Of a stretch of DNA of 64,000 nt, positions 116-12,726 are shown piece by piece. The DNA comes from a virus: the IMG/VR virus record IMGVR_UViG_3300045988_173968, one strand, 5' to 3'. Both the position numbers and the translations under genes were made by a program. Within the stretch, counting starts at the first letter, position 1. Each line of letters opens with the position of its first letter. The notes under the pieces are model-generated. The model was not told where the DNA came from. It did not search any database and saw nothing but the letters and a program-made list of their open reading frames with translations.

Positions 116-391
116 TTACACCCCCAATAGATTAAATAGTTCCTTTGAGAAATCCGGTATAGCGGGCTCAAAAAGATCGAGATACGAAATAAAATCACTC
201 CGGTTTAATTCTGAACCACATCTAATATCAAGTCGATTGCCATTTATTTTGTATACAGATTTGTAGCTATCCATATGCCATCCGTCGAAATTGATTCCCG
301 CATCTTTCATTGCTTCAAGTATTGCTTCTCTGTATATGCCTTGTGGACAGGTAATCCAGTTATTCCGCATCAAGTCAAGGTTTGCTTCCAT
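116..391 (-). CDS. small early protein, LDL(M/L)R family, degenerate shared C-terminal tail (..DFSKELFNLLGV)
   Basis: ORF track 91 aa. TAAATG junction with the upstream micro-ORF. N-terminus MEANLDLMR resembles the 1575 and 1905 paralogs. Confidence 0.6.
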   Translation of the reverse strand: MEANLDLMRNNWITCPQGIYREAILEAMKDAGINFDGWHMDSYKSVYKINGNRLDIRCGSELNRSDFISYLDLFEPAIPDFSKELFNLLGV

Positions 392-469
392 TTAAATCAA
401 CTCCCATTGTTGTTCTTCCGTTAATGGCCCACGAAAATAATGGCTCCTAAGCAAATAAATGTCCAACAC
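392..469 (-). CDS. micro-ORF, 25 aa (MLDIYLLRSHYFRGPLTEEQQWELI)
   Basis: GTG start 8 nt after a GGAGG. Stop abuts the next ATG. Shares the L-x-x-x-L..RGPL pattern with the 1-113 ORF. Below the ORF-track size cutoff. Confidence 0.25.
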   Translation of the reverse strand: MLDIYLLRSHYFRGPLTEEQQWELI

Positions 470-488
470 AATTAACTCCTCCTATTTA

Positions 489-766
489 TTGCAACCTGAG
501 ATATCTGTTCCAAGTTTGGATCGCCTCTTCGTCGTCTTAAGTTGGGCTTCTGGCCCAATTAAGTCGGATTTGACTTAAGTTTGACTAGCCGAGGTGTGAA
601 CTCCTGTACTGTTTATCGGACTTTGACCTAGTATATGACCTCGGGCAGCAAGCTGCCGGCTTCTCGCCTTCGCTAATCAGACTCCCTGGCGTCCTTCTTG
701 CCCTCACAATGCGTTACAGCCGGTTATACCGAGCTGCTTTAGCAGTCGCTAAAAATATCGTTGCAA
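489..766 (-). ncRNA. structured non-coding cassette A (candidate RT-associated ncRNA)
   Basis: 278 nt with no ORF. On the minus strand it starts TTGCAACGATATTTTT and ends GATATCTCAGGTTGCAA, and these ends are inverted repeats. Internal stems include CCGAGGT/ACCTCGG, TTAAGTC/GACTTAA, TTGGGC/GCCCAA and GGCAG/CTGCC. About 75 nt is homologous to cassette B2, including an identical GGTATAACCG. Confidence 0.4.
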
Positions 767-775
767 TTTTTTTAA

Positions 776-976
776 TTATTTATTTTCTGAGAAAAGCTCG
801 TCCACCGTGGAATCAAGAGCAGAAGCAATTTTCTGATAGTTCTCCAATCTGGAGCGAGTAAAGTTCTTTTCGATTTTGGAAACGGTAGCGGTACAGAGCC
901 CAACCTTGTCGGCAAGGTCTTTCATGCCGTAGCCTTTCTCCATGCGCTTCTTCATCATTTCATAATTGTGTTTCAT
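776..976 (-). CDS. XRE/Cro-CI family helix-turn-helix regulator
   Basis: GGAGG RBS 7 nt before ATG 976. Sequence MKDLADKVGLCTATVSKIEKN...ENYQKIASALDSTVDELF fits the HTH_XRE pattern. The ORF-track start at 1003 is less likely. Confidence 0.75.
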   Translation of the reverse strand: MKHNYEMMKKRMEKGYGMKDLADKVGLCTATVSKIEKNFTRSRLENYQKIASALDSTVDELFSENK

Positions 977-996
977 AGTTAATACCTCCTTAAATG

Positions 997-1025
997 TTGA
1001 CAAGTTAGCAAAAATATACTACTAT
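997..1025 (+). promoter_or_regulatory. near-consensus sigma-70-type promoter facing rightward
   Basis: TTGACA (997-1002), a 17-nt spacer, then TACTAT (1020-1025). No plus-strand gene lies downstream; a terminator hairpin follows about 35 nt later. Confidence 0.35.
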
Positions 1026-1060
1026 GGTCGTAGCACATTCTTTCTGTTTCATGGTGTGCC

Positions 1061-1090
1061 GCCGCCCTTCATGGGCGGCTCCTTTCTTTT
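1061..1090 (+). terminator. intrinsic terminator-like hairpin
   Basis: GCCGCCC-TTCAT-GGGCGGC followed by TCCTTTCTTTT on the plus strand. It overlaps the stop codon of the minus-strand gene 1089-1562. Confidence 0.4.
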
Positions 1091-1562
1091 ATTCGTCCTC
1101 TTCGGTGTAATCTACCCAATAGATAGGGAGATTGATCCAATCTTCCTCACCGTCTGCCTTAGCATAAAAGAAGCCGCCCTCGCCAGATTCTCTAACTGTG
1201 GCAACTTCTTCCTCGGTAGCTTCGCGCCAATTTCCTTCGCCAAACTCGGCATTAAGTTCATTCTCGAGACACTCTTCAGAACAATATGTAACGCAATCGT
1301 CTTCGTTGTAGTATCCCTCGTTAATTTTTTCTCCACAGCAAGCGCAGGTCGTCTTAAAAACTGGGATTGCCAGGAATGCGTCAATTTTCTTTATGGCTTT
1401 GTTCAAATCAACTCCAGTGCTCTTGATTTGAATTGTCTTACCATCTTCCGCAAGGTATGCTTCCATACCCTCGCCTATCTCATCGGCGGAATAAATAGTT
1501 TCTTTATCTTCCATACCATTGAGTTTAAGATCAATGATCAGTCTGAGTTTTCTTGAAAACAT
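1089..1562 (-). CDS. hypothetical protein with CxxC...CxxxC zinc-ribbon-like motif and acidic C-terminus
   Basis: ORF track 157 aa. GGAGG RBS upstream of the ATG. Motif CACCGEKI...YCSEEC. Confidence 0.6.
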   Translation of the reverse strand: MFSRKLRLIIDLKLNGMEDKETIYSADEIGEGMEAYLAEDGKTIQIKSTGVDLNKAIKKIDAFLAIPVFKTTCACCGEKINEGYYNEDDCVTYCSEECLENELNAEFGEGNWREATEEEVATVRESGEGGFFYAKADGEEDWINLPIYWVDYTEEDE

Positions 1563-1574
1563 TTCACATCCTCC

Positions 1575-1892
1575 TTAATTATCTAAAAGTGTTTGAAGCT
1601 CGTTTGAAAAATCATAGCCACCTGACGGATTTGACATTTCGATCAATTCCTCGATAGTGATAACTGGGTATGGCGAAAAAGTAATAAAAGTGCAAAACAT
1701 CTCAAGAAAGCCTCCGACTGCTTCTTTTATAAAATAACAATCGCCATCCCAACACATATAACATTGCAAAGATTTTTCGCCATCGTAAGCATCTACGGCA
1801 TGCTGCATTGTTGCCGCCCATTTGCCTATATCCCCGTGGAAGAACACCGCATATTCCTTGAGCAGATCCAGGTTAATATAGGGGTAATCCAT
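1575..1892 (-). CDS. small early protein, LDLL(K/R) family, degenerate shared tail (..YDFSNELQTLLDN)
   Basis: ORF track 105 aa. GGAGGG RBS. Paralog of 1905-2210 and 116-391, with N-terminus YINLDLLKEYA. Confidence 0.65.
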   Translation of the reverse strand: MDYPYINLDLLKEYAVFFHGDIGKWAATMQHAVDAYDGEKSLQCYMCWDGDCYFIKEAVGGFLEMFCTFITFSPYPVITIEELIEMSNPSGGYDFSNELQTLLDN

Positions 1893-1904
1893 ACCATTCC
1901 CTCC

Positions 1905-2210
1905 TTATATTCCAAGCAACGCTGCAAGCTGTTCGGAGAAATCTTCCTGCGGAGAAGACATCTCAACGAATTCGTCCCATGTTATTACTGGTCTGTCTTC
2001 TTCAAAATTACACAAGTTTCTGCATAACATCGTATTATGCACGATATAATACACCGCTTTATCACAATTCCATTTCATGCCGCAACTCAAGAGACCCGTA
2101 TAACAACGAACAGAGTATTTCATCGTATCGACCATGGTTCTACTCCAATGGTCAATCTTCAGAGCATATGTCCTCAACAAATCCAAATCAACATAAAGAT
2201 ATTCCGGCAT
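1905..2210 (-). CDS. small early protein, LDLLR family, degenerate shared tail (..EDFSEQLAALLGI)
   Basis: ORF track 101 aa. AGGGGG RBS. N-terminus YVDLDLLRTYA. Confidence 0.65.
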   Translation of the reverse strand: MPEYLYVDLDLLRTYALKIDHWSRTMVDTMKYSVRCYTGLLSCGMKWNCDKAVYYIVHNTMLCRNLCNFEEDRPVITWDEFVEMSSPQEDFSEQLAALLGI

Positions 2211-2212
2211 AC

Positions 2213-2455
2213 TTATACCCCCTGAATTCCAAGAATCACATATCCGTCTTTAACAAAATCCGGGTCGGACAACGCATAGCAGATACGCATTGTCACAGAC
2301 TTTCCGGTATATTCACCGTTATACTCTTTCAGAATCAGAATATCTCCCACACGGAAGTCTCTGTCGTACTTACGAACCTCAAAAGTCTTAACTCCGTTCA
2401 CTACATCTCTGTAGTACGGTGGCCAGATTTTTAATTCATGTATCTTCGGATTCAT
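2213..2455 (-). CDS. ASCH/DUF3850-like (PUA-fold) protein
   Basis: ATGA start/stop overlap with the upstream gene. IHELKIWPPYYRDVVNGVKTFEVRKYDRDFRVGDILILKEY matches my recollection of the ASCH-like pattern. The ORF-track N-terminal extension is discounted. Confidence 0.55.
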   Translation of the reverse strand: MNPKIHELKIWPPYYRDVVNGVKTFEVRKYDRDFRVGDILILKEYNGEYTGKSVTMRICYALSDPDFVKDGYVILGIQGV

Positions 2456-2721
2456 ACGGCTGCACCTCCTAACAGTGTCATAAGCTCTTCTTCGAAAGTG
2501 AAAGGCTCCTCTACTTGAACTTTTTCGAGGAATGCAGGAACAGCCCATTCGATTCTTTCCCTACCAGAGTTTTCATGAATACAGATGCGATACTCGCGGT
2601 CGCTGAAACCAATAACCTCAATAAACTCAACACAACTACTGCGCCGATATTTATCAAGTCTCCAGGGCAATCTTTGATGGTTTACGATTTGCACAACATC
2701 TCCAACTTGAAACTTTCTCAT
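2452..2721 (-). CDS. small protein with SH3/KOW-like N-terminus (KFQVGDVVQIV) and shared tail ..FTFEEELMTLLGG followed by AAV
   Basis: ORF track 89 aa. GGAGGGG RBS. Lies immediately downstream of the RT gene. Confidence 0.7.
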   Translation of the reverse strand: MRKFQVGDVVQIVNHQRLPWRLDKYRRSSCVEFIEVIGFSDREYRICIHENSGRERIEWAVPAFLEKVQVEEPFTFEEELMTLLGGAAV

Positions 2722-2733
2722 ATACTCCCCTCC

Positions 2734-3882
2734 TTACGCAGCAACATCGTCTGCCATCATCTTGATGACATCGCAATGATACTTTTTGTTGTACCAAGAG
2801 ATCACATAATCAAAATACTCAGGTTCCACATTGCTATAATAAGAAAGCTTGCCACGCAGAGTCATTACTTCTTCCGGCGGCCAGCCCTTACCATCTTTTC
2901 TTGCAACTATGTAGTTATTCAGCATTGCCTTGAACACCTTTTTATTCTCGTGTCCAACAGTGATTTTGTTGTCTTTGTTGATCATCAAACCAAGACACCA
3001 GTTTCGACCTGCTCTGCTGCCGTAATGTGTTTTTTCTTTCTTAATGGTGTATGGCGCATCGAACTTCTTAAATACATCGTTCATCATCTCGATGACGCCC
3101 ATGAACAAGAAACCTTTCTTGGAAGAAACCGTAGCATCATCGGCGTAACGAGTGTAGACAAAATCGTTAGTCTCGCTGGCTCTCAATCGTCGAGAGATTT
3201 CATGGTCGATGGGAATCATAATGACATTAGTAAGAAGCGGAGAAATCGGAGTTCCCTGCGGCAGTCCACCATCGAGGAAACAGAGAGAGATAGCATCTCG
3301 TAGCGCTTTCTCGCCATCCTCATATTTAACAACCTCGCAGAAAGGATAAATCACGGATAACATCCGCATTGTGAATTCCAGCGTAGTCGAACCAAAGAAA
3401 TTGCTCAAGTCCGTCTTGAGGTACCAATTACTGTTGTTTCTTTGATGTACTTTCAGCGCATCAGTAGTGCTTCTGCCCTTGATGTACGCAAAAGCAGCCG
3501 TATGATATAGAACCTTAAAATCATTCTCGAAGATTGCCTTGAGACTATACAGAGCTTGTTTCAGTTCGTCATCCGGCGCATCGATCTGACGCCAACCGCC
3601 GGATTTCTTTGGAATTTTGAAAGAATTATAATGTTCTCGCATGTTGTTCGCATCAAATTTCGGCTGGTAAGTACGATTAAAACTCTTCAGCTTCCCGATA
3701 AGATACGGTGCTCGCGCCATTTCTTTTAGCTCCTGGGGGAGCTTTTTGTATTCGTAGGTTCTTGTGGATGTCCCGAAGTCCACTCCGTTAATATACGGGC
3801 TGAGATTTTTCACACCAAAGAGAACATCCTCAAGGGTAAGTTGCTTCTTTGCTCTTGTCATAAATGTGGTTACATATGGCAT
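2734..3882 (-). CDS. reverse transcriptase, retron-like/DRT-like, RT domain only
   Basis: 382 aa. AAGGAG RBS. Motifs: RQIDAPDDELKQALYSL, AYIKGRSTTDALKVH, LKTDLSNFF, GLPQGTPISPLLTN, YTRYADDATVSS. No maturase or endonuclease domain was recognised. Confidence 0.9.
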   Translation of the reverse strand: MPYVTTFMTRAKKQLTLEDVLFGVKNLSPYINGVDFGTSTRTYEYKKLPQELKEMARAPYLIGKLKSFNRTYQPKFDANNMREHYNSFKIPKKSGGWRQIDAPDDELKQALYSLKAIFENDFKVLYHTAAFAYIKGRSTTDALKVHQRNNSNWYLKTDLSNFFGSTTLEFTMRMLSVIYPFCEVVKYEDGEKALRDAISLCFLDGGLPQGTPISPLLTNVIMIPIDHEISRRLRASETNDFVYTRYADDATVSSKKGFLFMGVIEMMNDVFKKFDAPYTIKKEKTHYGSRAGRNWCLGLMINKDNKITVGHENKKVFKAMLNNYIVARKDGKGWPPEEVMTLRGKLSYYSNVEPEYFDYVISWYNKKYHCDVIKMMADDVAA

Positions 3883-3908
3883 ATAAAAACTCCTTTCTTT
3901 TGTGTCGA

Positions 3909-4175
3909 TAAAACAGTCTAAAACACTTTCCTGATGACGCTGGAGGCGCCTGAAGACTCGCTGTTCTGCTAGTTACGGCTTCTAGTGACGGCGTTCTAGA
4001 TGAAATAAGGCCATCTTGAGTGCAGCTTTCTAATGGTTTGAACCATTATTTGCCAGAAAAGATGATTCGAGCTCGCCAGTCGCTCCTGGATCAGCTCCGG
4101 CGTGCCTCTTGTCTGTGACTATGCGTACCATTCGGTTATACCAAAATGCGCTCAATGAGCTATAACACTGTTTTA
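3909..4175 (-). ncRNA. structured non-coding cassette B2, immediately upstream of the RT gene (candidate cognate ncRNA)
   Basis: No ORF. A 9-nt terminal inverted repeat reads TAAAACAGT (5') and ACTGTTTTA (3') on the minus strand. Homologous to cassette A over about 75 nt. Occupies the position of msr-msd in retrons. Confidence 0.45.
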
Positions 4176-4178
4176 CTT

Positions 4179-4479
4179 TTGCAACCTGAGATGTGTGCGA
4201 TGATCAGCTACTGAGCTCTGGAGACCGGCTCCTCGAGTTTACTGCTGTATTATGTTTGTCTTTACCGTGCGTTGGTTTCTGGATAAGCGGTGGATGTTAG
4301 CAGTTTTGCTTTCGCAGTTAACCTATATCTGTCTTGGTTAACGATGATGTTCCACTTCACCTCGCCTACGCCAGGTACCTGCAGGCTTCCTTCGTGGTAT
4401 CCCGTTCCTTTTCGCTGGCAATTCAGTACATTCGCTTAAAACGAAATGCTTTGTTTTGAAAACAAAAATATCGTTGCAA
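4179..4479 (-). ncRNA. structured non-coding cassette B1
   Basis: 301 nt with no ORF. Its boundary sequences are identical to those of cassette A (TTGCAACGATATTTTT ... ATCTCAGGTTGCAA), but the interior is unrelated. Confidence 0.35.
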
Positions 4480-4488
4480 AAAAATCAT

Positions 4489-5172
4489 TTAATAGGTATC
4501 AATGGCAAAATTAAAAGCGTCCACCAGAATAATCTTCTTAAGGACACCTTTATTTACAAAGTTTACGAAGTTGGAAACCCCAAAAGAAACGATAGTCCAA
4601 ATCGTTCCCGCAACTGAAAGAGATACATTGCAGGCAGATACAGGAGTTGCCGCTCTTGCTTCCTCCTCGGTAAACTCCATAGAGCGAAGCAGATTGTCCT
4701 GCATCTTAGGATCAGACCAGTTGGCTGCGTAGTGTTGAGCATCAGTAAGCCGTGTCCGGAAATCAAAGACAGCTTTGATGTTCATGTTTGTTGCGTTTTC
4801 CTTGACGATTCTCCGCCGAAGCTCAATGCTATCTACGCAGAGGAAAACATAGCCGCTCAGACGCTGCTTGTCATATCCCTTATCGAAGATTTTCAGCTCT
4901 GAATCGATATCTGGATTGATTTTATGAAGCATTTCGGCAACCGCCGCAGTCTTGGGCTTGCCAATATCCTCAGTCGTAAACATCTGATTGGCAAGGTTAT
5001 GTGCCTCAACGACATCGAAGTCGTAAAGAGAAATGTTCGTCAGCCCCAATCGGGCCAAACAAACCGCCAAAGTAGAACCGACGCTGCCACAGCCGATAAT
5101 ATGGATGCGGGTCTTCGCACACTTGTCTGGATTAAAGAACTCGAAGCTCTTTGACAAATCCATCATCTGCAT
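4489..5172 (-). CDS. ThiF/MoeB/E1-like adenylyltransferase-fold protein
   Basis: 227 aa. GGAGG RBS. Rossmann motif IHIIGCGSVGS, DFDVVEAHNLANQ, GKPK, LCVDS. No catalytic-Cys domain is visible. Confidence 0.8.
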   Translation of the reverse strand: MQMMDLSKSFEFFNPDKCAKTRIHIIGCGSVGSTLAVCLARLGLTNISLYDFDVVEAHNLANQMFTTEDIGKPKTAAVAEMLHKINPDIDSELKIFDKGYDKQRLSGYVFLCVDSIELRRRIVKENATNMNIKAVFDFRTRLTDAQHYAANWSDPKMQDNLLRSMEFTEEEARAATPVSACNVSLSVAGTIWTIVSFGVSNFVNFVNKGVLKKIILVDAFNFAIDTY

Positions 5173-6058
5173 ATTCCTCCTCTAAGTCAATATCTTCGGT
5201 AATTCCACCGCCTATAACCTCAGCTTTTACCGAGTTTTTGGTTTTGGAATAATCCTCACTTTCGTTTTTTTTATCCTGTTTCTTACCGTAGTTGCCATAC
5301 GGATAATCATAGTCGTCCCAAAAATCTTCCCATCGACTACCGCATCCTCCGTAACCACCATATCCGTAGTCATATGTGCCACTCTTTTTAGAGCTATTGT
5401 AAGCACCTGTACCATGATAGGTATATGTCTTTGCCTTTACGAGTTTTTTGGACTCCTCCAGGAACTCACCGTTATCGAACTCAATAGAGACATCTATATC
5501 TCCATTCTCATAAAGCACATTGTTAGCGAGGTCGTAAATCTTAGCATTGTGCTCGTTCTTTTTATTCCAAATCACAAACACCCAAAATGTATCAGGTGAG
5601 CTATTCCCTACCCTGGTTGCCTGGTCAGTGAGATCAGTACCACTCGGGCTTGTCCCCATATTTACATGGCTGTGACCTTGGAAACGGATACGGTTGTAGT
5701 CCTCATCGGGGATTTTCTCGAGAAAAGCTCTGTGCTCATCCTCATCCGTGTCCACATTCACACCAGTAACGACTTGCGGGTACACAAAAACATCTGAGAT
5801 TTTGAAGCCGGCATCACCCACTCTGTCTACATATCCATACCATGCTACCTCAGAGTCAAAATTGTTGACCAAAGTAATCATCTTGGAATAGGCTTCGGGG
5901 GTGAAAATAATCTTCGCTTTACCCGTCTTCTCGCTTTTGAACTCCTTGGTGTATGTAAACTTGCCACCCTCGAAGCTCTTAGCGGATGAGATCTTCTCCG
6001 TGAATTCTCGAATCATTTCCGCAATTGTCTCTTTGGGAATGTTAATCATTTTAGCCAT
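5132..6058 (-). CDS. JAB/MPN (JAMM) metallopeptidase with Tyr/Gly-rich low-complexity C-terminal region
   Basis: 308 aa. EVAWYG ... HSHVNMGTSPSGTD gives E...HxHx7Sx2D. Overlaps the E1-like gene by 41 nt and the upstream gene by 8 nt. Confidence 0.8.
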   Translation of the reverse strand: MAKMINIPKETIAEMIREFTEKISSAKSFEGGKFTYTKEFKSEKTGKAKIIFTPEAYSKMITLVNNFDSEVAWYGYVDRVGDAGFKISDVFVYPQVVTGVNVDTDEDEHRAFLEKIPDEDYNRIRFQGHSHVNMGTSPSGTDLTDQATRVGNSSPDTFWVFVIWNKKNEHNAKIYDLANNVLYENGDIDVSIEFDNGEFLEESKKLVKAKTYTYHGTGAYNSSKKSGTYDYGYGGYGGCGSRWEDFWDDYDYPYGNYGKKQDKKNESEDYSKTKNSVKAEVIGGGITEDIDLEEEYADDGFVKELRVL

Positions 6059-7403
6059 TCTTCAACACCTCCATAGCTTCTTTCACGGTATGCACCGAAC
6101 CATCCTCGAACTCAATGAAACGCTCATTAGAAGAGCAGATCTTTTCAATGAAATTGGCGCCAACCGTCGAGTCATCAAAGTTGATATTGTGAGTAGAACC
6201 AATAGCCTGTTCAACTGCCCCAAGGTAATTTCTCTCACCCATCATACGATCAATGATTCGAGCATTACCACCCATGCAATGGAAACCGCAGAGATGAGGG
6301 TGAGGCAGATAAGTCTTGAGCTCTGCCAGATTTGTCTCTCTTTTATCTGGTCTCAAGGTACCAGCAACATCCAAGACAAAATGTGCCCAGGTGCGAATCT
6401 TGAATTTCGGATTCTCCCCAAAGACGCTATCCAAGAACAGCTTCATATCATTTTTGGACTTGATGTTCTTCCGCTCGCCATAGTTGCCATAAAAATAGCT
6501 GTATTCGTTATTGAGGCAACGCTCGAAGCTATCCTCATCAAAAGAGTCCAAATAACCCTTGACATAAAAGGAGATAAGCTCTTCGTCCGCATCTTCCAGG
6601 ATGAGATCCTTGCACCGGAGAAAGAACTTGAGAAATTCCCCTTCGTTGCCATCATTACGGCGAATTTTTTCTTCAAGAGCCGCAATTTGCAGGGTGTTAA
6701 AATGGTCTTTGTCGTAAAGGTCATCGAGCTGCCGAAGAAGATTCTCTATGTTGCTCTTAATTCTCGTGTATTCACTTTTCATTCGCTCCAACGAACTCTT
6801 CTCGAATTTCACATCAATGTCACTGAGAGCAGAGCGGATGAACATCTCACGCAGGTCAAGACGGTCATACAGTTTCTGAGATGAATCAGCAAACATATTT
6901 TCATCATTGCGAGAAATCGATTTCACGAGATCAAGCTCGTCGTTGTCGAGAGGCTTGCCCGCAAAGGTCGCAGGGAAGAGCTTCTGCACAATGCAAGCCA
7001 ACATACGACCAAATGACGAATCGAGCTTTTCGCTGTAGATGATGGAACGATTATTGTTTTCATCAATAAATGCCCAACCGACATCTTTTTGTTTGGAAAC
7101 GAAAAGACTTACCGGCTCATTCTGCTTGTAGCCAGCCGCAATAATGTCGGATTTATTCTCGCCAAGCCAAGACAAAGCGTTTTCACCGGAAATCAAATAG
7201 ACCGTGTTCCGCTCAGTTGGAATTGCATAATTGCTTTTTGCAATTTGGAGGTTGTATGTATTTTCCTTATCTCTGGGGTAGACCAGTGCTCTCAAGACAT
7301 GAGAATAACACTCCTCTCCGCCGATTGGTGTTACTGGGATATTGGTGCAAATCGTAGAAAACTTGTTGTCCGTAAATGTTGTGTTGCGAATACTTCGAAT
7401 CAT
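6051..7403 (-). CDS. hypothetical 450-aa protein, first gene of the JAB/E1 operon
   Basis: Long clean ORF, translationally coupled to the JAB gene. Has a central coiled-coil-like region and a C-terminal PHPHLCGFHCMGG motif. Function unknown. Confidence 0.7.
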   Translation of the reverse strand: MIRSIRNTTFTDNKFSTICTNIPVTPIGGEECYSHVLRALVYPRDKENTYNLQIAKSNYAIPTERNTVYLISGENALSWLGENKSDIIAAGYKQNEPVSLFVSKQKDVGWAFIDENNNRSIIYSEKLDSSFGRMLACIVQKLFPATFAGKPLDNDELDLVKSISRNDENMFADSSQKLYDRLDLREMFIRSALSDIDVKFEKSSLERMKSEYTRIKSNIENLLRQLDDLYDKDHFNTLQIAALEEKIRRNDGNEGEFLKFFLRCKDLILEDADEELISFYVKGYLDSFDEDSFERCLNNEYSYFYGNYGERKNIKSKNDMKLFLDSVFGENPKFKIRTWAHFVLDVAGTLRPDKRETNLAELKTYLPHPHLCGFHCMGGNARIIDRMMGERNYLGAVEQAIGSTHNINFDDSTVGANFIEKICSSNERFIEFEDGSVHTVKEAMEVLKNG

Positions 7404-7436: not shown

Positions 7437-7512
7437 TGGAGCTGGCGGACGGACTTGAACCCCCGACCTGATGCTTACAAAACATCTGCTCTACCAACTG
7501 AGCTACGCCAGC
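7437..7512 (-). tRNA. tRNA-Thr (anticodon UGU), CCA encoded
   Basis: Hand-folded cloverleaf: GCTGGCG/CGCCAGC acceptor, GCTC/GAGC D stem, anticodon loop TTTGTAA, T arm GGGGG-TTCAAGT-CCGTC. Confidence 0.85.
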
Positions 7513-7531
7513 AATGGTAACTAATTTGTGA

Positions 7532-8053
7532 TTAGGTTCCTTTGCGTGAAAGACGGCACGCAACAAATAAACCAATTGACATCACTATGGTATCCATCAC
7601 CGCTGCGACCATATTTTTCGGAATCTTTACTGCAAGGGGGATAGAAAAGAGCAAGCATTCGACAGCTGTTTTAACAACGCCGACGCCAAGTAAAACTGCC
7701 ACACCGGTTATTGCAATGTTTGACCCACACAAACTATCATTTTTCTGGTAGGCTTTCCCACAAATGATCCCAATCAGAACATTGCCAAGCATCCAACCAA
7801 GTGGAAACCAACCCGAAGAAAGCAAGCTTACGACAGTACACCCCGCACCGCCTACAATCGCGCCGCCAAGCATCCCGAACCTCATACAGCAAACCGCAAG
7901 CACTATATACCCAAGGTCAAGCGAAATATGGCCAATGCCAATCGGTATTTTGAGCACCATACTTACGACAACATACAGTGCAATACAAAGTGCAATTTGG
8001 CATATCCACATAGTGTTTTTTCTTATAGAATTTTCTTTAGTTGGTTTATTCAT
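7532..8053 (-). CDS. polytopic membrane protein, ECF-transporter S-component-like
   Basis: 173 aa with 5-6 hydrophobic helices rich in small residues (GGAIVGGAG, GWMLGNVLIGIICG). The family call is from pattern memory only. Confidence 0.45.
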   Translation of the reverse strand: MNKPTKENSIRKNTMWICQIALCIALYVVVSMVLKIPIGIGHISLDLGYIVLAVCCMRFGMLGGAIVGGAGCTVVSLLSSGWFPLGWMLGNVLIGIICGKAYQKNDSLCGSNIAITGVAVLLGVGVVKTAVECLLFSIPLAVKIPKNMVAAVMDTIVMSIGLFVACRLSRKGT

Positions 8054-8399
8054 CAGTCGATTCTCCTTTCAACTTTTTACTGTCTACATATACCTCTATT
8101 GCCCTGTGATGCGCAAACTGCTCAAGAAGTTCGTCAAAAGATACACCATTCACTTTTGCGTCCACTTTCATTGCAGAAAATTGATCTTTATATTTCTTAA
8201 CCATGCTCTCTAAAGCGAGAAAATGTTCTTTGTCTTTCGGATAAAAAGCGATATCCTCAATGCAAACTTTGCTGATATCTTTTTCGTGGTAAATCGCTCT
8301 CAAACAATTTTTACATGGTTCATCCTCCGGCGATAATGAGAAGTTAATGCAATCACCGCAATAGACGGTAACTCCATTCACCTTAATTGGCTTTACCAT
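8046..8399 (-). CDS. hypothetical protein with CxxC...CxxC zinc ribbon
   Basis: 117 aa. AGGGGG RBS. Motif YCGDC...CKNC. Contains an internal VSFDELLEQF that resembles the shared tail. Confidence 0.6.
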   Translation of the reverse strand: MVKPIKVNGVTVYCGDCINFSLSPEDEPCKNCLRAIYHEKDISKVCIEDIAFYPKDKEHFLALESMVKKYKDQFSAMKVDAKVNGVSFDELLEQFAHHRAIEVYVDSKKLKGESTDE

Positions 8400-8423
8400 T
8401 AAAAATACCCCCTAAATTTTTAT

Positions 8424-8498
8424 TGGAGCTGAAGCCCAGACTTGAACTGGGAACCTGCGCTTTACGAGTGCGCCACTCTACCTTTGAGTTACTTCAGC
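8424..8498 (-). tRNA. tRNA-Thr (anticodon CGU), CCA encoded
   Basis: Hand-folded: acceptor GCTGAAG/CTTCAGC, anticodon loop CTCGTAA, T arm CCCAG-TTCAAGT-CTGGG. One A-A mismatch at the base of the anticodon stem. Confidence 0.75.
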
Positions 8499-8532
8499 AT
8501 ATTGCCCCTCCGAAGAGGGGCATGAGGTATTA

Positions 8533-8760
8533 TCAGGCGTTGGAGGTCTTCGCAATGCAGGACAGGCGGCAGGACTCAGTAATGCCGTAGGAGGCAAAGG
8601 ACTTGTCCATCTCACCGGCACGCAACGGAGTACCATCCAGCGCGGGGGTGGCGGTAGAATAATCTACATTGTTCTCATCGAGAACCTCTCGAATGGTCTT
8701 CTCAGCGTCTACGAGCAGAGTCTTACGATCCATGTTGTTAGTCAGAGTAATGCTTACCAT
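8533..8760 (-). CDS. 75-aa protein, possible ubiquitin-like beta-grasp fold (no C-terminal GG)
   Basis: AAGGAG RBS. Its size and the pattern MVSITL..KTLLVDAEKTIREVL...ALDGTPL...DKSFASYGI resemble small Ubl/ThiS-type proteins. This is inference only. Confidence 0.4.
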   Translation of the reverse strand: MVSITLTNNMDRKTLLVDAEKTIREVLDENNVDYSTATPALDGTPLRAGEMDKSFASYGITESCRLSCIAKTSNA

Positions 8761-8859
8761 AATTTTTTCTCCTTTGTTATGTAAATTTAATTTTTAGGGA
8801 CATAGTTGCGCCCCGCAGCGGTTAGCCACGGGGCTTGATTGTACTGTGCTGTTTACGGC

Positions 8860-9255
8860 TTACTGGACATCGATGGCAGCCTGAACGGAAGCAACCTCAG
8901 CCTCGATCTCGGTGAGAGTAGTACCAAGAGTCTCCTCCAGAGCATTCATCTTCAGGATGATGGCACCGAACTTGTCCTCAGCGTAGGTTTTAGCCTCGGC
9001 GGCAGACATACCGGTGGGGATCATCTCGGTGTAGGTCGCGTAGCCATTCTCGTCGTGAGAAGCGCTTACGAACACAACGCCATTCTTATTGGCGCTGGCA
9101 GTCTTAGTGCCAACATCAATGCTGAAAACGGGGTTCTTTTCTTTGTCGCGCAGAACCAGAGCATCGGGACGATACTTCTTAGTCTTACGCAGGGTCTCCA
9201 GCTTCAGGCCGGAAGTGAGTACGAGTGCGTCTCCATGGATAGTGATCTTAGTCAT
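8860..9255 (-). CDS. hypothetical 131-aa protein
   Basis: AAAGGAG RBS before ATG 9255 (MTKITIHGDALVL...). The ORF-track start at 9285 is less likely. Confidence 0.6.
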   Translation of the reverse strand: MTKITIHGDALVLTSGLKLETLRKTKKYRPDALVLRDKEKNPVFSIDVGTKTASANKNGVVFVSASHDENGYATYTEMIPTGMSAAEAKTYAEDKFGAIILKMNALEETLGTTLTEIEAEVASVQAAIDVQ

Positions 9256-9317
9256 AGTTTGACTCCTTTCGCCCATTTTGGGCATTAAAATTATTTATGT
9301 ATAACCCTGTCTGGGTT

Positions 9318-9605
9318 TTACAACGAAAGTATGTTCGAGAGCTGGTCAAAAAAATCTTCGTATGCAATTTCAGGCTCTATGCAGTCAACATAAAAACGGC
9401 GGTTGATTTCCTTCGCTCCAGGGATATCACAACTCCATAAGCCTTCAAGATTGTGATTATCGAACATGATCGAAACACAATTCGACTTACATACTTCAAC
9501 AACCTCACCAGCCTCTCCAATGAAATGACTTTCATCTAATCCGCTGTGTGGGTTTTTCTTAACAACAACCACTCTGTCGCCTACTTTGAATTTTGCCATT
9601 ATCAT
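9318..9605 (-). CDS. small protein with SH3/KOW-like N-terminus (KFKVGDRVVVV) and degenerate tail ..YEDFFDQLSNILSL
   Basis: ORF track 95 aa. ATGA-type coupling with the upstream gene. Confidence 0.65.
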   Translation of the reverse strand: MIMAKFKVGDRVVVVKKNPHSGLDESHFIGEAGEVVEVCKSNCVSIMFDNHNLEGLWSCDIPGAKEINRRFYVDCIEPEIAYEDFFDQLSNILSL

Positions 9606-9829
9606 TCACCTCCAAATAATTTTAGTAATTCTTTCTCGAATGTTGGTTGTTCTTCCTCTGGCAAAAGGATAAGTTCATCCTTTGCAATTTCGTCTGCGGT
9701 CGGCATATAACAGTCTGCAGAATATGCAAATGTCCCTTCACACCTATTCTTACACGCCAAGTAATCGCAATTGTCAGGGTTGGCTGTTTCATTCTGACGG
9801 AATAGACAAAATTCATAAAAACAGTCCAT
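9602..9829 (-). CDS. Cys-rich small protein with shared tail ..PTFEKELLKLFGG followed by E
   Basis: ORF track 75 aa. TAATG overlap with the upstream small membrane ORF. Confidence 0.65.
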   Translation of the reverse strand: MDCFYEFCLFRQNETANPDNCDYLACKNRCEGTFAYSADCYMPTADEIAKDELILLPEEEQPTFEKELLKLFGGE

Positions 9830-9963
9830 TACTCAAGCTCCTCTTTCATTTTTTCATACAATTCGCTAAACCGCTTGCTCCACTTCCTTAGCCCGAAGAA
9901 AAAGCATACGCCCAGCACAATCCACAGACCGCTGGCGATGTTTATTAATAGATTATCCATCAT
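9829..9963 (-). CDS. small single-pass membrane protein (44 aa)
   Basis: MMDNLLINIASGLWIVLGVCFFFGLRKWSKRF... Start overlaps the stop of 9960-10307 and its stop overlaps the next ATG. Below the ORF-track cutoff. Confidence 0.4.
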   Translation of the reverse strand: MMDNLLINIASGLWIVLGVCFFFGLRKWSKRFSELYEKMKEELE

Positions 9964-10307
9964 TCTACCTCCTGCATCCAAAATTTACGACGGCAATCAG
10001 AGCATATCCGGTTTGAACAATTTCCGTATCTATCCCGACAATCAGCAGAAATGAGTTTTGGGCATAGCATCAAGCGCCCACATTTGTCAATTTCCGCCTC
10101 TGGATACTGTTCAAGAAACACGCTCTGCCTCGTCTTGCGTGGATGTGCAGCAGACCATTCCTCGACTATAGCAATCTGATCCGTAGCGTCCAGCGTTGAT
10201 ATGGTGGAAACCCCACAACCACCATTAGAAGCTGGGCACCCAGTACATTTATCACCAAAACTCTCGCACATCCTGTTGCGTTCCTCAATAAATTTTACAA
10301 CATCCAT
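9960..10307 (-). CDS. Cys-rich hypothetical protein
   Basis: GGAGG RBS 8 nt before ATG 10307 (MDVVKFIEERNRMC...). Multiple CxxC/CxxxxC clusters. Confidence 0.6.
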   Translation of the reverse strand: MDVVKFIEERNRMCESFGDKCTGCPASNGGCGVSTISTLDATDQIAIVEEWSAAHPRKTRQSVFLEQYPEAEIDKCGRLMLCPKLISADCRDRYGNCSNRICSDCRRKFWMQEVE

Positions 10308-10445
10308 TGAATTTTCCTCCATTTGCACCCGTCGCACGCGCCATTATGTGCGTGTTTGTACTTCCCGCAGTATTGTCATAACTCGTTGATAAGCGCCTTG
10401 CGGTCTGACGCCAGCTACATTGAACTTTATCTCCCATAGAAAATT

Positions 10446-10751
10446 TCATTCGGTACTCCCTCCCAATAATTTAAGAAGTTCGTCCTCAAAGGATTCTATT
10501 GGAGCAACTAACCGGATCTCATTTTCAAGAACCCAGCGGCAATTAGGATTATAAGCGTCAAGCTCCCAAGTGGACTCATAGGCATCCTCGAATGAGATGC
10601 AAAATTTTGCATTCAATATTCCATTAACATTTTCCGGTTCATTGAAATTAACATCAATAACAGTTCCAACAGCGCCAATTAAATCGTCACACGCATAATC
10701 GTCGTATGCAATATTCTCAACAATTTCTACATTATCGCCTACTGAAAACAT
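10446..10751 (-). CDS. small protein with SH3/KOW-like N-terminus (FSVGDNVEIV) and shared tail ..ESFEDELLKLLGG followed by STE
   Basis: ORF track 101 aa. AAGGAGG RBS. Confidence 0.7.
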   Translation of the reverse strand: MFSVGDNVEIVENIAYDDYACDDLIGAVGTVIDVNFNEPENVNGILNAKFCISFEDAYESTWELDAYNPNCRWVLENEIRLVAPIESFEDELLKLLGGSTE

Positions 10752-10814
10752 CTTCTTACCTCCTTTTCAAAAGTGGGGTTCTTCCCAGTCATGCACCCCT
10801 CGACTGCTTATTTG

Positions 10815-10849
10815 AAAGGAAAGGAGAAACACCATGAACAAGATGGTGT
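10815..10849 (-). terminator. intrinsic terminator closing the tRNA/ncRNA array
   Basis: On the minus strand: ACACCAT-CTTGTTC-ATGGTGT followed by TTCTCCTTTCCTTTC. Confidence 0.5.
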
Positions 10850-10990
10850 TGGGGGAAGGCTTGGGATTTGAACCCAACAATGCCTTTCGGCAACCTTCCG
10901 TATAGAGGCGGCTGTTGCACGCTGCGCACACGCATCGAAACCGCTAATCAGGGACTGTGCAAGCACCATCCCTTGGAAGGCAAACCCTTT
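10850..10990 (-). ncRNA. structured RNA ending in a 50-nt tRNA-like minihelix (acceptor stem, T arm, CCA) but lacking D and anticodon arms
   Basis: 3' module at 10850-10899: GGAAGGT/GCCTTCC acceptor, TGCC-GAAA-GGCA hairpin, TTGGG-TTCAAAT-CCCAA T arm, then C-CCA. Upstream hairpins include GGGA..GTGC-TT-GCAC..TCCC. A second CCTTCC copy upstream can pair alternatively with GGAAGG. Confidence 0.4.
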
Positions 10991-11016
10991 GACGCAACAT
11001 TTAATTCTCACTTACT

Positions 11017-11103
11017 TGGCGGAGAGGATGGGATTCGAACCCATGGCTCTGACGAGTCACCGGTTTTCAAGACCGGCTCCTTAAACCGCTCGGACACCTC
11101 TCC
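11017..11103 (-). tRNA. tRNA-Ser (anticodon UGA), long variable arm, CCA encoded
   Basis: Acceptor GGAGAGG/CCTCTCC, anticodon arm CCGGT-CTTGAAA-ACCGG, T arm ATGGG-TTCGAAT-CCCAT. Confidence 0.85.
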
Positions 11104-11560
11104 AGGTCTAGCTGGTTTTCTTGTTTCTCTCAAACCAGCAAAGCATCTATCTACGCAAGTTCAAACCGTAGCCATTGGATGAACTTTTTCTCGACCCGCA
11201 GGGTTAGATGCTTTACCCCGCTTGAACATTTTCGCAGTCCCTAGCGCCTCACCACAAAGTCTTTACTCTGTGGAGAGGTCTGAGCGTTAGGCAAGCTGTG
11301 TACACTATTGGCCAATTTATGCCATGCAATTAGCACTCGCCCTGCGGAATCGTACCGCACCCTCATAAACCGTACAGTATTAAGAATGGCCATTCCTACC
11401 CTCGGTGGTTTATGATTCGAACCTCGCTTTGCTGTACTGATGTAGTAATACGACTCGTGCCATCCAGCAGTTCACACGAGAAGTGTGGGTTGAAGATTTT
11501 TAATCGACCTTTTAGCTAGCTCTCACTTCTTGGATTAGCGCGACCCACAAATTGATATTT
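11104..11560 (-). ncRNA. large (about 455 nt) non-coding, hairpin-rich RNA candidate embedded in the tRNA array
   Basis: No credible ORF on either strand. Bounded directly by tRNA-Ser and a tRNA-like gene on the same strand. Many local stems, for example GCGG-TACGATT-CCGC and GTGGGT...ACCCAC. Confidence 0.4.
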
Positions 11561-11629
11561 TGGTTTCGGGTGGACTTGAACCACCGACGCACTGGCTCCC
11601 AGCTGCTCTACCTCCTGAGCTACGAAACC
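11561..11629 (-). ncRNA. tRNA-like gene with truncated anticodon arm (5-bp stem closed by a 3-nt GAG loop)
   Basis: Normal acceptor (GGTTTCG/CGAAACC), D arm (GCTC-AGGAGGTA-GAGC) and T arm (GGTGG-TTCAAGT-CCACC). The anticodon arm is GCTGG-GAG-CCAGT. Total 69 nt, no CCA encoded. Confidence 0.55.
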
Positions 11630-11744
11630 ATATTTAATTGGACAGTCTTTCTGAATCTAGTGTGCGCATTGCGCCTTCATCTCTCTCCGCAACTGTCCGG
11701 GATGCGTCAAATCCATCCGCGTGGCTGTCCCGGGAACAGCTAAT

Positions 11745-11820
11745 TGGTACGCCATCAGGGATTCGAACCCCGAACTAGCCGGATATAAGCCGGATACTCT
11801 GACCGTTGAGTTAATGGCGC
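11745..11820 (-). tRNA. tRNA-Ile (anticodon UAU), CCA encoded
   Basis: Acceptor GCGCCAT/ATGGCGT, anticodon loop CTTATAT, T arm CGGGG-TTCGAAT-CCCTG. One mismatch at the 27-43 pair. Confidence 0.75.
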
Positions 11821-11846
11821 ATTTAAGCAGGCAAGCCTTGGCACCT

Positions 11847-12359
11847 CTAAACGAGGTGCCGCCTGTTGGTTCGATATGTATTGATTTCTTCTTGAAGCTC
11901 GTCCATGATGTCGGTAAGGATCTCCACATAGTTTTCATCTTGGCAGTAGCGATAAGCCACATCTTCAAGTTTCGAACCTGTGTACTTCCAGGAATCTGGA
12001 TTGTTGTATTCCAACAGCCCTTCCGCAATGAACCAGATACATTCTTCAACGGAGTCGAACGACCGGAAACTGCCATCATATTGACGCCAACCTCCGATGT
12101 TATTTTTCTCCTTGAAGTAGGTTGATGTTCCCCATCCGCTCTCCAATCCGAATTTTGCAAGTAAGTACAGCGGGTTTATTCCGTAATACTTCCCTGTTTC
12201 GAGGATTGTCCAAGCATATGGGGACAGCCCTTCTCGAAGATTTGTCAGTACATACTCGAATTCTTCCAATGTGTAGTCCGTTTCATCGGTAAAGACTTCG
12301 TACCCATACGCCGGAACTACTATCAGAAGCGCTAAGAGGATTGCAATGATTTTACGCAT
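11847..12359 (-). CDS. secreted GH73-type N-acetylglucosaminidase-like peptidoglycan hydrolase
   Basis: 170 aa. Signal peptide MRKIIAILLALLIVVPAYG. LAKFGLESGWGTS...NNIGGW matches the glucosaminidase pattern. It is the only gene here that ends at TAG (11847-11849); a TAA follows 7 codons later at 11823-11825. Confidence 0.65.
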   Translation of the reverse strand: MRKIIAILLALLIVVPAYGYEVFTDETDYTLEEFEYVLTNLREGLSPYAWTILETGKYYGINPLYLLAKFGLESGWGTSTYFKEKNNIGGWRQYDGSFRSFDSVEECIWFIAEGLLEYNNPDSWKYTGSKLEDVAYRYCQDENYVEILTDIMDELQEEINTYRTNRRHLV

Positions 12360-12391
12360 TTAATACCTCCTGAATTTTTGCCCTTGCGGGC

Positions 12392-12468
12392 TGGTCGGGA
12401 TGACAGGATTTGAACCTGCGACCTCGTACTCCCAAGGCACGCGCTCTACCAAGCTGAGCCACATCCCG
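12392..12468 (-). tRNA. tRNA-Pro (anticodon UGG), CCA encoded
   Basis: CGGGATG/CATCCCG acceptor, anticodon arm CGTGC-CTTGGGA-GTACG, T arm GCAGG-TTCAAAT-CCTGT. Confidence 0.85.
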
Positions 12469-12639
12469 ATAAAGAAAGAGCCTGCGGTTTTTCTACGCCA
12501 CAGGCTCTTCCACAGAAAGGGGGCGATGCACATCCCTGCATCTGGGGCTCTTTTTCCGGCTTGCATTTCGCAAGTCGCCTCTCGCACGAGCAGTGCTAAG
12601 GTTATCTCGAAAGGAGGTGCGGGGGAATGACGACCCCCG

Positions 12640-12726
12640 TGGTGCCGCTGGCGGGATTTGAACCCGCACGATGTTTCCATCGAGGGATTTTAAGTCCCTT
12701 TCGTCTGCCAATTCCGTCACAGCGGC
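12640..12726 (-). tRNA. tRNA-Leu (anticodon UAA), long variable arm, CCA encoded
   Basis: GCCGCTG/CAGCGGC acceptor, anticodon arm AGGGA-CTTAAAA-TCCCT, variable arm TCGATGGAAACATCGT, T arm GCGGG-TTCAAAT-CCCGC. Confidence 0.85.

Follow-up and report, generated by a model that had tools for sequence, protein, structure and literature searches.

Can one reverse transcriptase (RT) of a phage be served by more than one template RNA? This question is raised by a locus in the viral record IMGVR_UViG_3300045988_173968, of which we analysed a stretch of 64,000 nucleotides (nt), referred to here as the window. On its minus strand an RT gene is accompanied by three structured non-coding units, called B1, B2 and A, and is preceded by genes for a JAB-like and an E1-like protein. 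An earlier note on this DNA had read the arrangement as a retron-like RT with several, possibly interchangeable, template RNAs and had suspected a link to the E1 and JAB genes. Retrons are understood as bacterial abortive-infection sensors in which one RT and one non-coding RNA (ncRNA) are combined with a toxic effector. We consider it likely that the locus is a phage-borne retron, in which a single RT of the retron clade uses three separately folding ncRNAs of the msr/msd type encoded on its own strand.

The open reading frame (ORF) of the RT comprises 382 amino acids (aa), and the motifs that the note had read in it, YTRYADD, LPQGTPISPLL and GRSTTDALKVH, are all present with an intact YADD catalytic motif. 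As had been proposed, no other domain accompanies them: RVT_1 (residues 90-288, 1.3e-20) is the sole Pfam domain, no domain is fused to it, and Pfam detected neither a maturase/X nor an endonuclease domain. An N-terminal extension of about 78 aa is specific to the family of this RT. The best 25 PADLOC matches listed for the protein are all retron RT models (II-A 1.1e-51, I-A 1.9e-44). The top match in NCBIfam is the retron St85 RT (2.8e-54, 184.4 bits), followed by Ec67-type and TIR-type retron RTs, with the group II RT (7e-21, 74.6 bits against a cutoff of 300) and Drt2 (1.6e-9, 37 bits against a cutoff of 390) at lower ranks, and 13 of 15 PDB sequence matches are retron RTs, of which Ec83 reaches 4.9e-25. 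We further compared an AlphaFold2 (AF2) model of the RT (predicted local distance difference test, pLDDT, 87.1; predicted template modelling score 0.83) with known structures using Foldseek. The top 12 matches are retron RTs (best E 2e-19, template modelling score (TM) 0.75, root mean square deviation (rmsd) 4.6); the model superposes best on the RTs of Eco7/Ec78/Ec83 (E about 1e-19, TM 0.71-0.80, rmsd 3.8-4.9), and Ec86 and Eco2 come next. Group II, DRT9, diversity-generating retroelement (DGR), AbiA and DRT2 RTs rank below the retron RTs, with rmsd values of about 5.5-14, a few partial-length matches fitting better, and with the DGR RT at rank 39. Judged by the ranking of profiles, PDB sequences and predicted folds, the RT belongs to the retron clade and hence groups, as the note had expected, with enzymes that need an ncRNA.

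The space between the stop of the E1-like gene (4489) and the start of the RT gene (3882) holds no ORF of at least 60 aa and only spurious ORFs of 41-53 aa, in agreement with the approximately 600 nt of ORF-free sequence described before. B1 and B2 lie in this space, and unit A is located about 2 kb downstream of the RT (Table 1). All three units delimited in the earlier note are real, with coordinates that shift by 0-2 nt, to 4481-4177 for B1 and 767-488 for A. The 3′ end of B2 lies 26 nt before the ATG of the RT, which is the canonical position of a retron ncRNA. The two ends of each unit are complementary and could form the a1/a2 stem of a retron, with 9 bp in B1 (TTTTGCAAC/GTTGCAAAA), 8 bp in A (ATTGCAAC/GTTGCAAT) and, in B2, the 9-nt terminal inverted repeat that had already been noticed (TAAAACAGT/ACTGTTTTA). 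A pair of opposing G residues that marks the inner end of the a1/a2 stem is a hallmark of retrons (Mestre et al. 2020, PMC7736814), and such pairs are found in B1 (G4472/G4186), B2 (G4166/G3918) and A (G759/G496).

All three units have a second hairpin, P2, in common, which forms a repeat family at 706-737, 4118-4149 and 4418-4449 with a weaker copy in B1; in the consensus fold of A, P2 shows one compensatory change. The homology between A and B2 is also real, as a 55-nt local alignment scores 37 compared to 17.5 ± 2.1 for shuffled sequences (maximum 25), and it reaches about 70 nt when the 5′ half of P2 is included, which is shorter than the roughly 75 nt claimed before. The boundary sequences said to be common to A and B1 are identical, comprising an exact 16-nt repeat at the 5′ ends (751-766 and 4464-4479) and 14 nt at the 3′ ends (489-502 and 4179-4192). 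These identical termini cover a1, the G, the next 8 nt and the last 14 nt, while the interiors are unrelated and the units of other genomes have distinct arms. This suggests a recent gene conversion between the ends of A and B1 in the lineage of the window.

Table 1. Coordinates of the non-coding units, the RT, neighbouring genes and other features in the window (CM, covariance model; MFE, minimum free energy; HTH, helix-turn-helix)
Feature	Coordinates	Strand	Evidence or description
Unit B1, 305 nt	4177..4481	(-)	Sequence; CM 53.3 bits; consensus fold with five relatives; present in loci L001-L012
Parts of B1	a1 4481-4473; putative branching G 4472; P1 4466-4450; P2 4449-4428; opposing G 4186; a2 4185-4177		
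Unit B2, 267 nt	3909..4175	(-)	Sequence; CM 34.1 bits; consensus fold
Parts of B2	a1 4175-4167; putative branching G 4166; P1 4160-4150; P2 4149-4127; opposing G 3918; a2 3917-3909		
Unit A, 280 nt	488..767	(-)	Sequence; CM 52.3 bits; MFE z -3.85; consensus fold
Parts of A	a1 767-760; putative branching G 759; P1 753-738; P2 737-716; opposing G 496; a2 495-488		
Fast-evolving segment in B1	4218..4313	(-)	Divergence 0.226; hairpin swapped for a different hairpin in sister phages
Fast-evolving segment in B2	4038..4124	(-)	Divergence 0.202; 11-nt insertion in two relatives
Retron-type RT, 382 aa	2734..3882	(-)	ORF, Pfam, PADLOC, NCBIfam, PDB, AF2/Foldseek
E1-like (ThiF/MoeB-fold) adenylating enzyme, 227 aa	4489..5172	(-)	Pfam ThiF 9e-24; PADLOC E1-E2 (Cap2-like) 2e-18
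JAB/MPN-like protein, 308 aa	5132..6058	(-)	Weak PADLOC JAB matches, 5.7e-4, residues 78-169
Conserved 450-aa protein ('p450', named for its length), first gene of the module	6051..7403	(-)	Syntenic in 68/69 viral loci
Six small ORFs from RT to unit A	776..2721	(-)	89 aa, DUF3850/ASCH 80 aa, 101, 105, 157 aa, Cro/C1-type HTH protein
DUF3850/ASCH-fold protein (PUA-like, putative RNA-binding), 80 aa	2213-2455		Just downstream of RT
Large terminase	30694-32400		Window
Portal	32417-33922		Window

Searches with the three units by nhmmer and blastn retrieved near-identical sister phages only. A common plan is apparent in the regions upstream of the RT in relatives with 45-52% RT identity: a1 (core TGYAAY) is followed by an invariant G, 3-8 nt, the hairpin P1, GC, P2, GTAACAAnTTG, a purine-/GC-rich structured stretch, a variable A/C-rich stretch, ATGTAG and finally a2 as the reverse complement of a1. 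The last G of ATGTAG is the opposing G that faces the invariant G after a1. In the family alignment the G after a1 is invariant, AG precedes a2 in 81% of the units, and conservation extends to ATGTAG ahead of a2 and to G.ATT behind a1; between the end of the upstream unit and the start codon of the RT lie 15-35 nt. The arm sequences vary by lineage with their complementarity kept, as exemplified by TATGCAAT/ATTGCATA, ACTGTAAC/GTTACAGT, GTCTGTATT/AATACAGAC, GAATTGTAAC/GTTACAATTC, AAGCATGTAAT/ATTACATGCTT and CTCACAAT/ATTGTGAG, and the P2 loops of different lineages read, for example, GGTATAACC and CGCCAAAGG.

We built a covariance model of the 5′ module, termed R1, from 24 sequences including the three units of the window. 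R1 finds exactly three sites in the window and no further match above 11 bits; since these units were in the training set, independent support comes from other loci, which were searched with flanks of 7 kb or less and for which the E-values of the model are rough by design. There, R1 yielded 210 matches in 79 viral loci and 123 matches in 80 loci from species-representative genomes and metagenome-assembled genomes (MAGs), none of the latter loci having been used to build the model. All of these 333 matches in 159 loci are on the strand of the RT. A perfect a1-G...G-a2 arrangement with at least 6 bp was found for 171 of the 200 viral matches analysed for arms (of 210) and for 85 of 121 independent matches, compared to 57 of 2420 random positions, the arm search requiring both Gs. 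The arms are mostly 8-12 bp long, and the median unit length is 292 nt. On an independent alignment P2 is 98.2% paired and slid controls only 39-53%, a percentage that is flattered because the alignment was fitted to the model; this affects the count of pair types less, in which compensatory changes occur at 7/7 pairs with 241 double-change cells compared to 58 ± 7 in shuffled alignments. Of 113 distinct sequences, 111 form a P1 hairpin with 4 bp or more, and the mean MFE is -5.9 kcal/mol compared to -1.75 kcal/mol in shuffled sequences (p = 4e-20). Selection at the level of the RNA is indicated both by this conserved hairpin and by the compensatory changes in P2. The cassettes are therefore present in homologous phages, and covariation supports the a1/a2 stem as well as the P1 and P2 hairpins, both as the note had anticipated. 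The retron ncRNA architecture recurs at RT identities of only 33-52%, and a large phage family has thus conserved it, with covariation of its stems.

These numbers also bear on the idea that the units are miniature mobile elements resembling MITEs, whose terminal inverted repeats look like a1/a2 arms by chance. Inverted repeats of 6-12 bp at the ends, a length of about 290 nt, several copies per genome and the identical termini of B1 and A around different interiors would all suit such elements. Mobile elements would nevertheless have to account for the fact that 333/333 matches lie near the RT and on its strand, with none elsewhere in the 64-kb window, and that the window units are not flanked by target-site duplications. 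Together with the signs of selection on the RNA and with arm signatures that are conserved by position across lineages (see below), this makes such an origin very improbable.

The window is not exceptional in having several units. Three units per RT is the commonest number (44 of 74 viral loci) in a range of 1-8, so that several ncRNAs per RT are the norm of the family and not a peculiarity of the window phage, and the note's proposal of more than one template RNA per RT extends to the family. In the usual layout one ncRNA precedes the RT and two follow it, the first downstream unit beginning 15-470 nt past the RT stop, and the downstream units are often arranged in tandem without an ORF between them. 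This layout is rearranged in the lineage of the window, where two units precede the RT and the third follows 2 kb downstream, after the six small ORFs. Direct scans also find units at 33-39% RT identity, with three in tandem after the RT in L165 and one on each side of it in L160.

How similar the units of one genome are depends on the element considered. P2 is more alike within a genome (identity 0.756) than between genomes (0.521), a difference reached by 0/2000 permutations, and the a1/a2 arms differ unit by unit within a genome. A P2 shared per genome combined with unit-specific arms fits one RT serving several RNAs, and by analogy P2 probably docks the RT. In several related lineages the arms moreover carry position-specific signatures, namely CTGTAAC upstream, TCCTGTAAT in the first downstream unit and CATTTGCAAT in the second, which persist where the interiors can no longer be aligned. 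Because these a1 signatures are kept despite diverged interiors, the three RNAs look like long-maintained and probably non-redundant paralogues. The view that the template RNAs are interchangeable therefore agrees with the common P2 within a genome but not with the a1 signatures kept by position across lineages.

Units placed between genes may also serve the operon itself, as structured cis-regulatory or processing elements such as RNase sites, stabilisers or leaders that reside with the RT without being reverse transcribed. They do occupy intergenic spaces of one co-directional block, and in the window they end 10-35 nt before a ribosome-binding site, B2 before that of the RT and A before that of a small ORF. 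P2, however, tracks the genome, and hence the RT, rather than the gene downstream, tandem units often have no ORF between them, and the full retron signature recurs with a retron-clade RT across 33-52% identity. We therefore regard cis-acting elements of this kind as unlikely and prefer a retron with several ncRNAs.

The interiors of the units are the part in which they depart most visibly from one another. They are U-poor (12-22% T against a background of 26%) and C-rich, and their consensus folds consist of a long-range helix around branched hairpins plus an A/C-rich stretch. Their conservation is confined to close relatives at the same position, and they cannot be aligned across lineages. 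At 20-60 nt before a2 the motif CTTCAG(G) occurs more often than expected, in 39 of 153 representatives instead of 6. In L165, the interior of the first of the three tandem units (about 3490-3550) resembles the 5′ half of a transfer RNA (tRNA; GCACCCTTAGCTCAGCTGGCAGAGCAACTGACTCCTACAGTT); the Rfam tRNA model does not recognise this stretch, and we rejected its identity as a tRNA.

The earlier note had drawn an analogy to DRT2, and the units could indeed be templates used in a DRT2-like or other UG/DRT mode, by rolling circle or template jumping, giving repetitive cDNA or a de novo gene. An interior that is A/C-rich, U-poor and largely unstructured is unlike classical msd hairpins, and in some DRT systems, too, a structured ncRNA of about 300 nt accompanies the RT. 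The analogy is not supported by the remaining evidence. Stop-free frames in the interiors are not in excess of what composition predicts (medians of 53.5 versus 49 codons in sense and 47 versus 48 in antisense), and on this test we also rejected a Neo-like coding potential of the units. The RT resembles retron RTs much more closely than Drt2 or Drt3: its Drt2 score lies far below the cutoff, and the fold search places DRT2 and DRT9 at much lower ranks than retron RTs. In addition, a1/a2 arms with opposing Gs are a feature of retrons. A template mode of the DRT kind thus appears quite improbable.

Two segments in the interiors, one in B1 and one in B2, evolve fast (Table 1), as determined from the pairwise divergence among seven phages with 99% identical RTs. 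The RT gene itself diverges about tenfold less than both segments (mean about 0.02; 0-0.063 per 100-nt window), and some of the neighbouring small ORFs are nearly as variable (0.12-0.16), which makes the segments hot spots and not unique outliers. An RT beside fast-evolving segments in a phage genome might bring to mind a DGR or the remnant of a group II intron. Such a system is exceedingly improbable here, as the 64-kb window contains no second copy of any unit interior (best match 17 nt, E 0.17) and neither a template-repeat/variable-repeat pair nor a self-targeting match of the units, DGR and group II RTs fall well below retron RTs in the NCBIfam and fold rankings, no Rfam group II intron is matched, and RVT_1 is the only Pfam domain of the RT.

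Retron types were defined by tight synteny, which directs attention to the genes beside the RT. One co-directional string of minus-strand genes spans 7403 down to about 390 and comprises, in this order, the 450-aa ORF, the JAB-like and E1/ThiF-like genes, the gap of about 600 nt, the RT, six small ORFs and a gap of about 280 nt. The order 450-aa protein, JAB, E1, ncRNA and RT is kept in 68 of the 69 viral loci with enough upstream sequence and also in GenBank MT835544 (42% RT identity), and conversely all 74 loci retrieved by E1 alone have an RT 261-1520 nt downstream. JAB and E1 persist beside the RT down to 33-39% RT identity in MAG contigs, whose bins are labelled Nealsonbacteria, Bacteroidia and Bacilli and in which an SNF2 helicase and an AAA_24 ATPase follow. 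The link to E1 and JAB suspected before is thus borne out down to 33% RT identity. As synteny of this tightness is the kind of signal from which known retron types are recognised, we infer that the E1, JAB and 450-aa genes may be an accessory or effector module of the retron.

The E1-like gene lies immediately upstream of B1; its product matches E1, MccB, ThiF and Cap2 in the PDB, and Cys181 in its TPVSAC motif is invariant in the E1 family. The JAB-like protein has a C-terminal tail rich in Tyr, Gly and Asp, and its orthologues stand upstream of E1 in 68/69 viral loci. In many orthologues from related loci, a Tyr/Asp/Gly-rich tail leads into ...Y(L/F)GG[KE] or ...YLGQ as the last residues, which resembles the di-glycine end of a ubiquitin-like protein (Ubl) with one residue to trim; the copy in the window runs on instead and overlaps the start of E1 by 41 nt.

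The 450-aa protein matches no family in Pfam, NCBIfam, PADLOC or PHROG, and its own family numbers at least 1321 cluster representatives (E<=1e-3). Its AF2 model (pLDDT 91.8) has a central helix of about 54 residues, and the residues H370, C376 and G378 are invariant within the family consensus PNPHI..Y.CLGN. A fold search gave no PDB match at E<0.3, and the sole match in BFVD is an uncharacterised phage orthologue. We considered an E2-like function from the PNPH..C.G motif, which is unsupported as the full-length AF2 model has no PDB match, and we discarded its C-terminal Gly as the mark of a Ubl-type E1 substrate as the C-terminus is not conserved.

Among the small ORFs downstream, tblastn near the RT in other lineages recovered DUF3850 in two loci only (L143 and L163) and none of the others. 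Paralogous proteins of about 85-105 aa surround the RT module on the minus strand of the window (116-391, 1575-1892, 1905-2210 and 2452-2721), and more members of this family occur in L108 (4073-6650 and 8299-8688). Several of them start with a 'GD.V.V' strand, and most end in an acidic amphipathic [DE]EL(L)xLL, for example EEELMTLLGGAAV, SEQLAALLGI and EEELLDLLS; to judge from its sequence, this common C-terminal peptide resembles a motif for docking or sorting. The 'LLG' tails of small ORFs were rejected as Ubl-type E1 substrates, being of the acidic 'EELLxLL' type without a di-glycine.

Several observations weigh against a retron, or against a functional bond with its neighbours. The RT scores 184.4 bits where the curated cutoff of NF038233, the retron St85 family, is 235. 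Retron RTs are defined by NAXXH in region X, with H most conserved, and VTG in region Y, with G most conserved (Mestre et al. 2020, PMC7736814), and both motifs are degenerate in the phage RT: aligned to Ec83, NAKIH corresponds to ALKVH (DAVKRH in the family) and VTG to CLG (or NLG). Across 24 family members the H (H146) and the G (G298) are invariant, whereas N, A, V and T are not maintained. The interior, multi-branched and then A/C-rich and U-poor, lacks the canonical single long msd hairpin and shows almost no compensatory changes among close relatives. The note had called all units hairpin-rich, which by folding energy alone is convincing for A only (MFE z-score -3.85) and weak for B1 (-1.99) and B2 (-1.56). 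A search with the ncRNA models of Rfam, retron msr included, gave no match to the units even at E<=5 (440-4520 and L165), and at the gathering threshold the whole window returned tRNAs and noise only; the units belong to no curated Rfam family. No known retron effector was found, as PADLOC, Pfam and NCBIfam on the neighbours gave only E1-like, JAB-like, DUF3850/ASCH and HTH proteins. In three loci that have the RT and units, L090, L103 and L108, neither E1 nor JAB is present within 7 kb. Finally, the synteny of the module could partly reflect vertical inheritance in one old phage lineage; since all module contigs look like phages of such a lineage, inheritance and function are not fully separable.

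If the three units are the ncRNAs of a retron, known retron chemistry suggests how they would be used. Each RNA would close on itself through its own a1/a2 stem, and the RT, by analogy to solved retron complexes, would dock on the P1/P2 stem-loops, with P2 as the element common to the units of one genome. Priming would take place from the 2′-OH of the invariant G after a1 (G4472, G4166 and G759), and copying would start at the conserved ATGTAG just 5′ of a2 and proceed toward the interior. The outcome would be three distinct species of reverse-transcribed DNA (RT-DNA), similar to the multicopy single-stranded DNA (msDNA) of retrons, with a 5′-CTACAT start and G/T-rich, A-poor bodies. That the units are transcribed and reverse transcribed, and hence that msDNA is synthesized, we infer by analogy.

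As to the role of the system, our preferred guess is a conflict function during infection, directed against host defences or competing mobile elements and coupled to E1 and JAB; a function in replication is less likely. More specifically, and as a tentative and rather doubtful proposal, the 450-aa protein, JAB, E1, the ncRNAs and the RT may form one phage conflict system, in which three RT-DNAs are made in infection and E1 and JAB modify or unmask a component. In parallel to Cap2 and Cap3, the target might conceivably, on an equally speculative footing, be the RT, the LGG-type tail of JAB itself or a host target.

The window is part of a genuine tailed phage, as it encodes a tape measure protein of 1589 aa, a terminase, a portal and a tRNA cluster. 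Its closest cultured relatives by portal are large siphoviruses of Bacillota with 30-37% identity. Six tRNA genes are located on the minus strand at 7437-12726 (Thr-TGT, Thr-CGT, Ser-TGA, Ile-TAT, Pro-TGG and Leu-TAA), the cluster starting 34 nt upstream of the module, and a seventh, tRNA-like match at 11561-11629 is given by Rfam but not called by ARAGORN. Scans for promoters and terminators were uninformative, with 17 promoter-like sites found and 12 expected.

Matches to the RT number 425 in IMG/VR and 440 among species-representative genomes and MAGs; they originate from human, ruminant, rabbit, chicken and termite guts. INPHARED contains no cultured phage with an RT more than 30% identical, the sole closer match being an unannotated contig from human faeces. 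The labels of the MAGs indicate Clostridia as hosts, with the restriction that bins can misplace phage contigs. In four MAG loci (L141, L142, L158 and L159) the RT match is 1360-1410 nt long instead of the usual 1135 nt or so, and this stretched or split match suggests an insertion or frame disruption within the RT gene. The literature searched contains no report of retron conservation in virulent-type or large gut phages, of natural multi-ncRNA retrons or of an RT linked to E1 and JAB, within the limit that a September 2026 ncRNA-mining preprint mentioning RTs (10.64898/2026.09.22.753630) may hold a prior description.

A phage retron with multiple ncRNAs next to E1 and JAB would make retron chemistry a deeply conserved module of widespread large gut phages, with several ncRNAs per RT and no known effector, and raises the questions of which task RT-DNA has outside toxin-antitoxin control and how one retron RT chooses among several RNAs. 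For biotechnology, such natural 'retron arrays', with a compact common docking hairpin and orthogonal closing stems, could inform tools for multiplexed RT-DNA. That E1 and JAB constantly accompany the RT hints at a link between reverse transcription and ubiquitin-like chemistry, of which the literature searched contains no description. If the doubtful reading as a conflict system were true, this would be the first case of a virus using a retron for its own infection programme, instead of a cell using one against viruses, and the first tie of reverse transcription to ubiquitin-like chemistry.

Compared to known systems, DRT2 and the class 2 UG/DRT systems likewise combine a single RT with an adjacently encoded, structured ncRNA of about 300 nt that serves as template. 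In contrast to these, the phage RT falls into another RT clade, and its several ncRNAs possess a1/a2 arms with opposing Gs and no stop-free template frame. The neighbouring genes resemble type II CBASS with Cap2 and Cap3 and the Bil systems, as an E1-like protein with a conserved Cys and a JAB protein are likewise found beside a nucleotidyl-transferring enzyme, and their best PADLOC matches are Cap2-type E1-E2 and Cap3-type JAB models. In CBASS, Cap2 and Cap3 control the CD-NTase. Unlike in CBASS and Bil, no CD-NTase, recognisable E2 or Ubl was found at the phage locus and the 450-aa protein has no E2-like PDB match; the partner enzyme of E1 and JAB is an RT with ncRNAs, and the system is phage-encoded.

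The likeness to bacterial retrons (types I-A Ec78/Eco7 and Ec83, and II-A Ec86; Mestre et al. 2020) extends from the RT clade, alike by sequence and predicted fold, to the ncRNA just upstream on the RT strand, the a1/a2 pairing with facing Gs, the 5′ msr-like stem-loops and the tightly syntenic neighbours. Bacterial retrons differ in being chromosomal or prophage cargo islands and not a conserved part of large uncultured Bacillota-type siphophages, and in possessing one ncRNA with a single long hairpin, compared to the 1-8 units per RT, mostly three, with a multi-branched and then A/C-rich, U-poor interior in the phage family. The phage RT further deviates by its degenerate NAXXH and VTG motifs (ALKVH and CLG) and its N-terminal extension of about 78 aa. 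The type-specific effectors or fusions of retrons include ATPase+HNH, Toprim, NDT, PRTase, 2TM, TIR, protease and others (Mestre et al. 2020); those of types I-XIII were not found at the phage locus, which has the 450-aa orphan, JAB and E1-like proteins instead. The nearest counterpart to several ncRNAs under one RT is engineered: in multitrons, one retron RT processes arrays of ncRNAs, each of which yields its own RT-DNA (PMC10370050). Multitrons were man-made from retron-Eco1 for multiplex editing, whereas the phage array is natural, carries distinct a1/a2 arms and is conserved over deep divergence.

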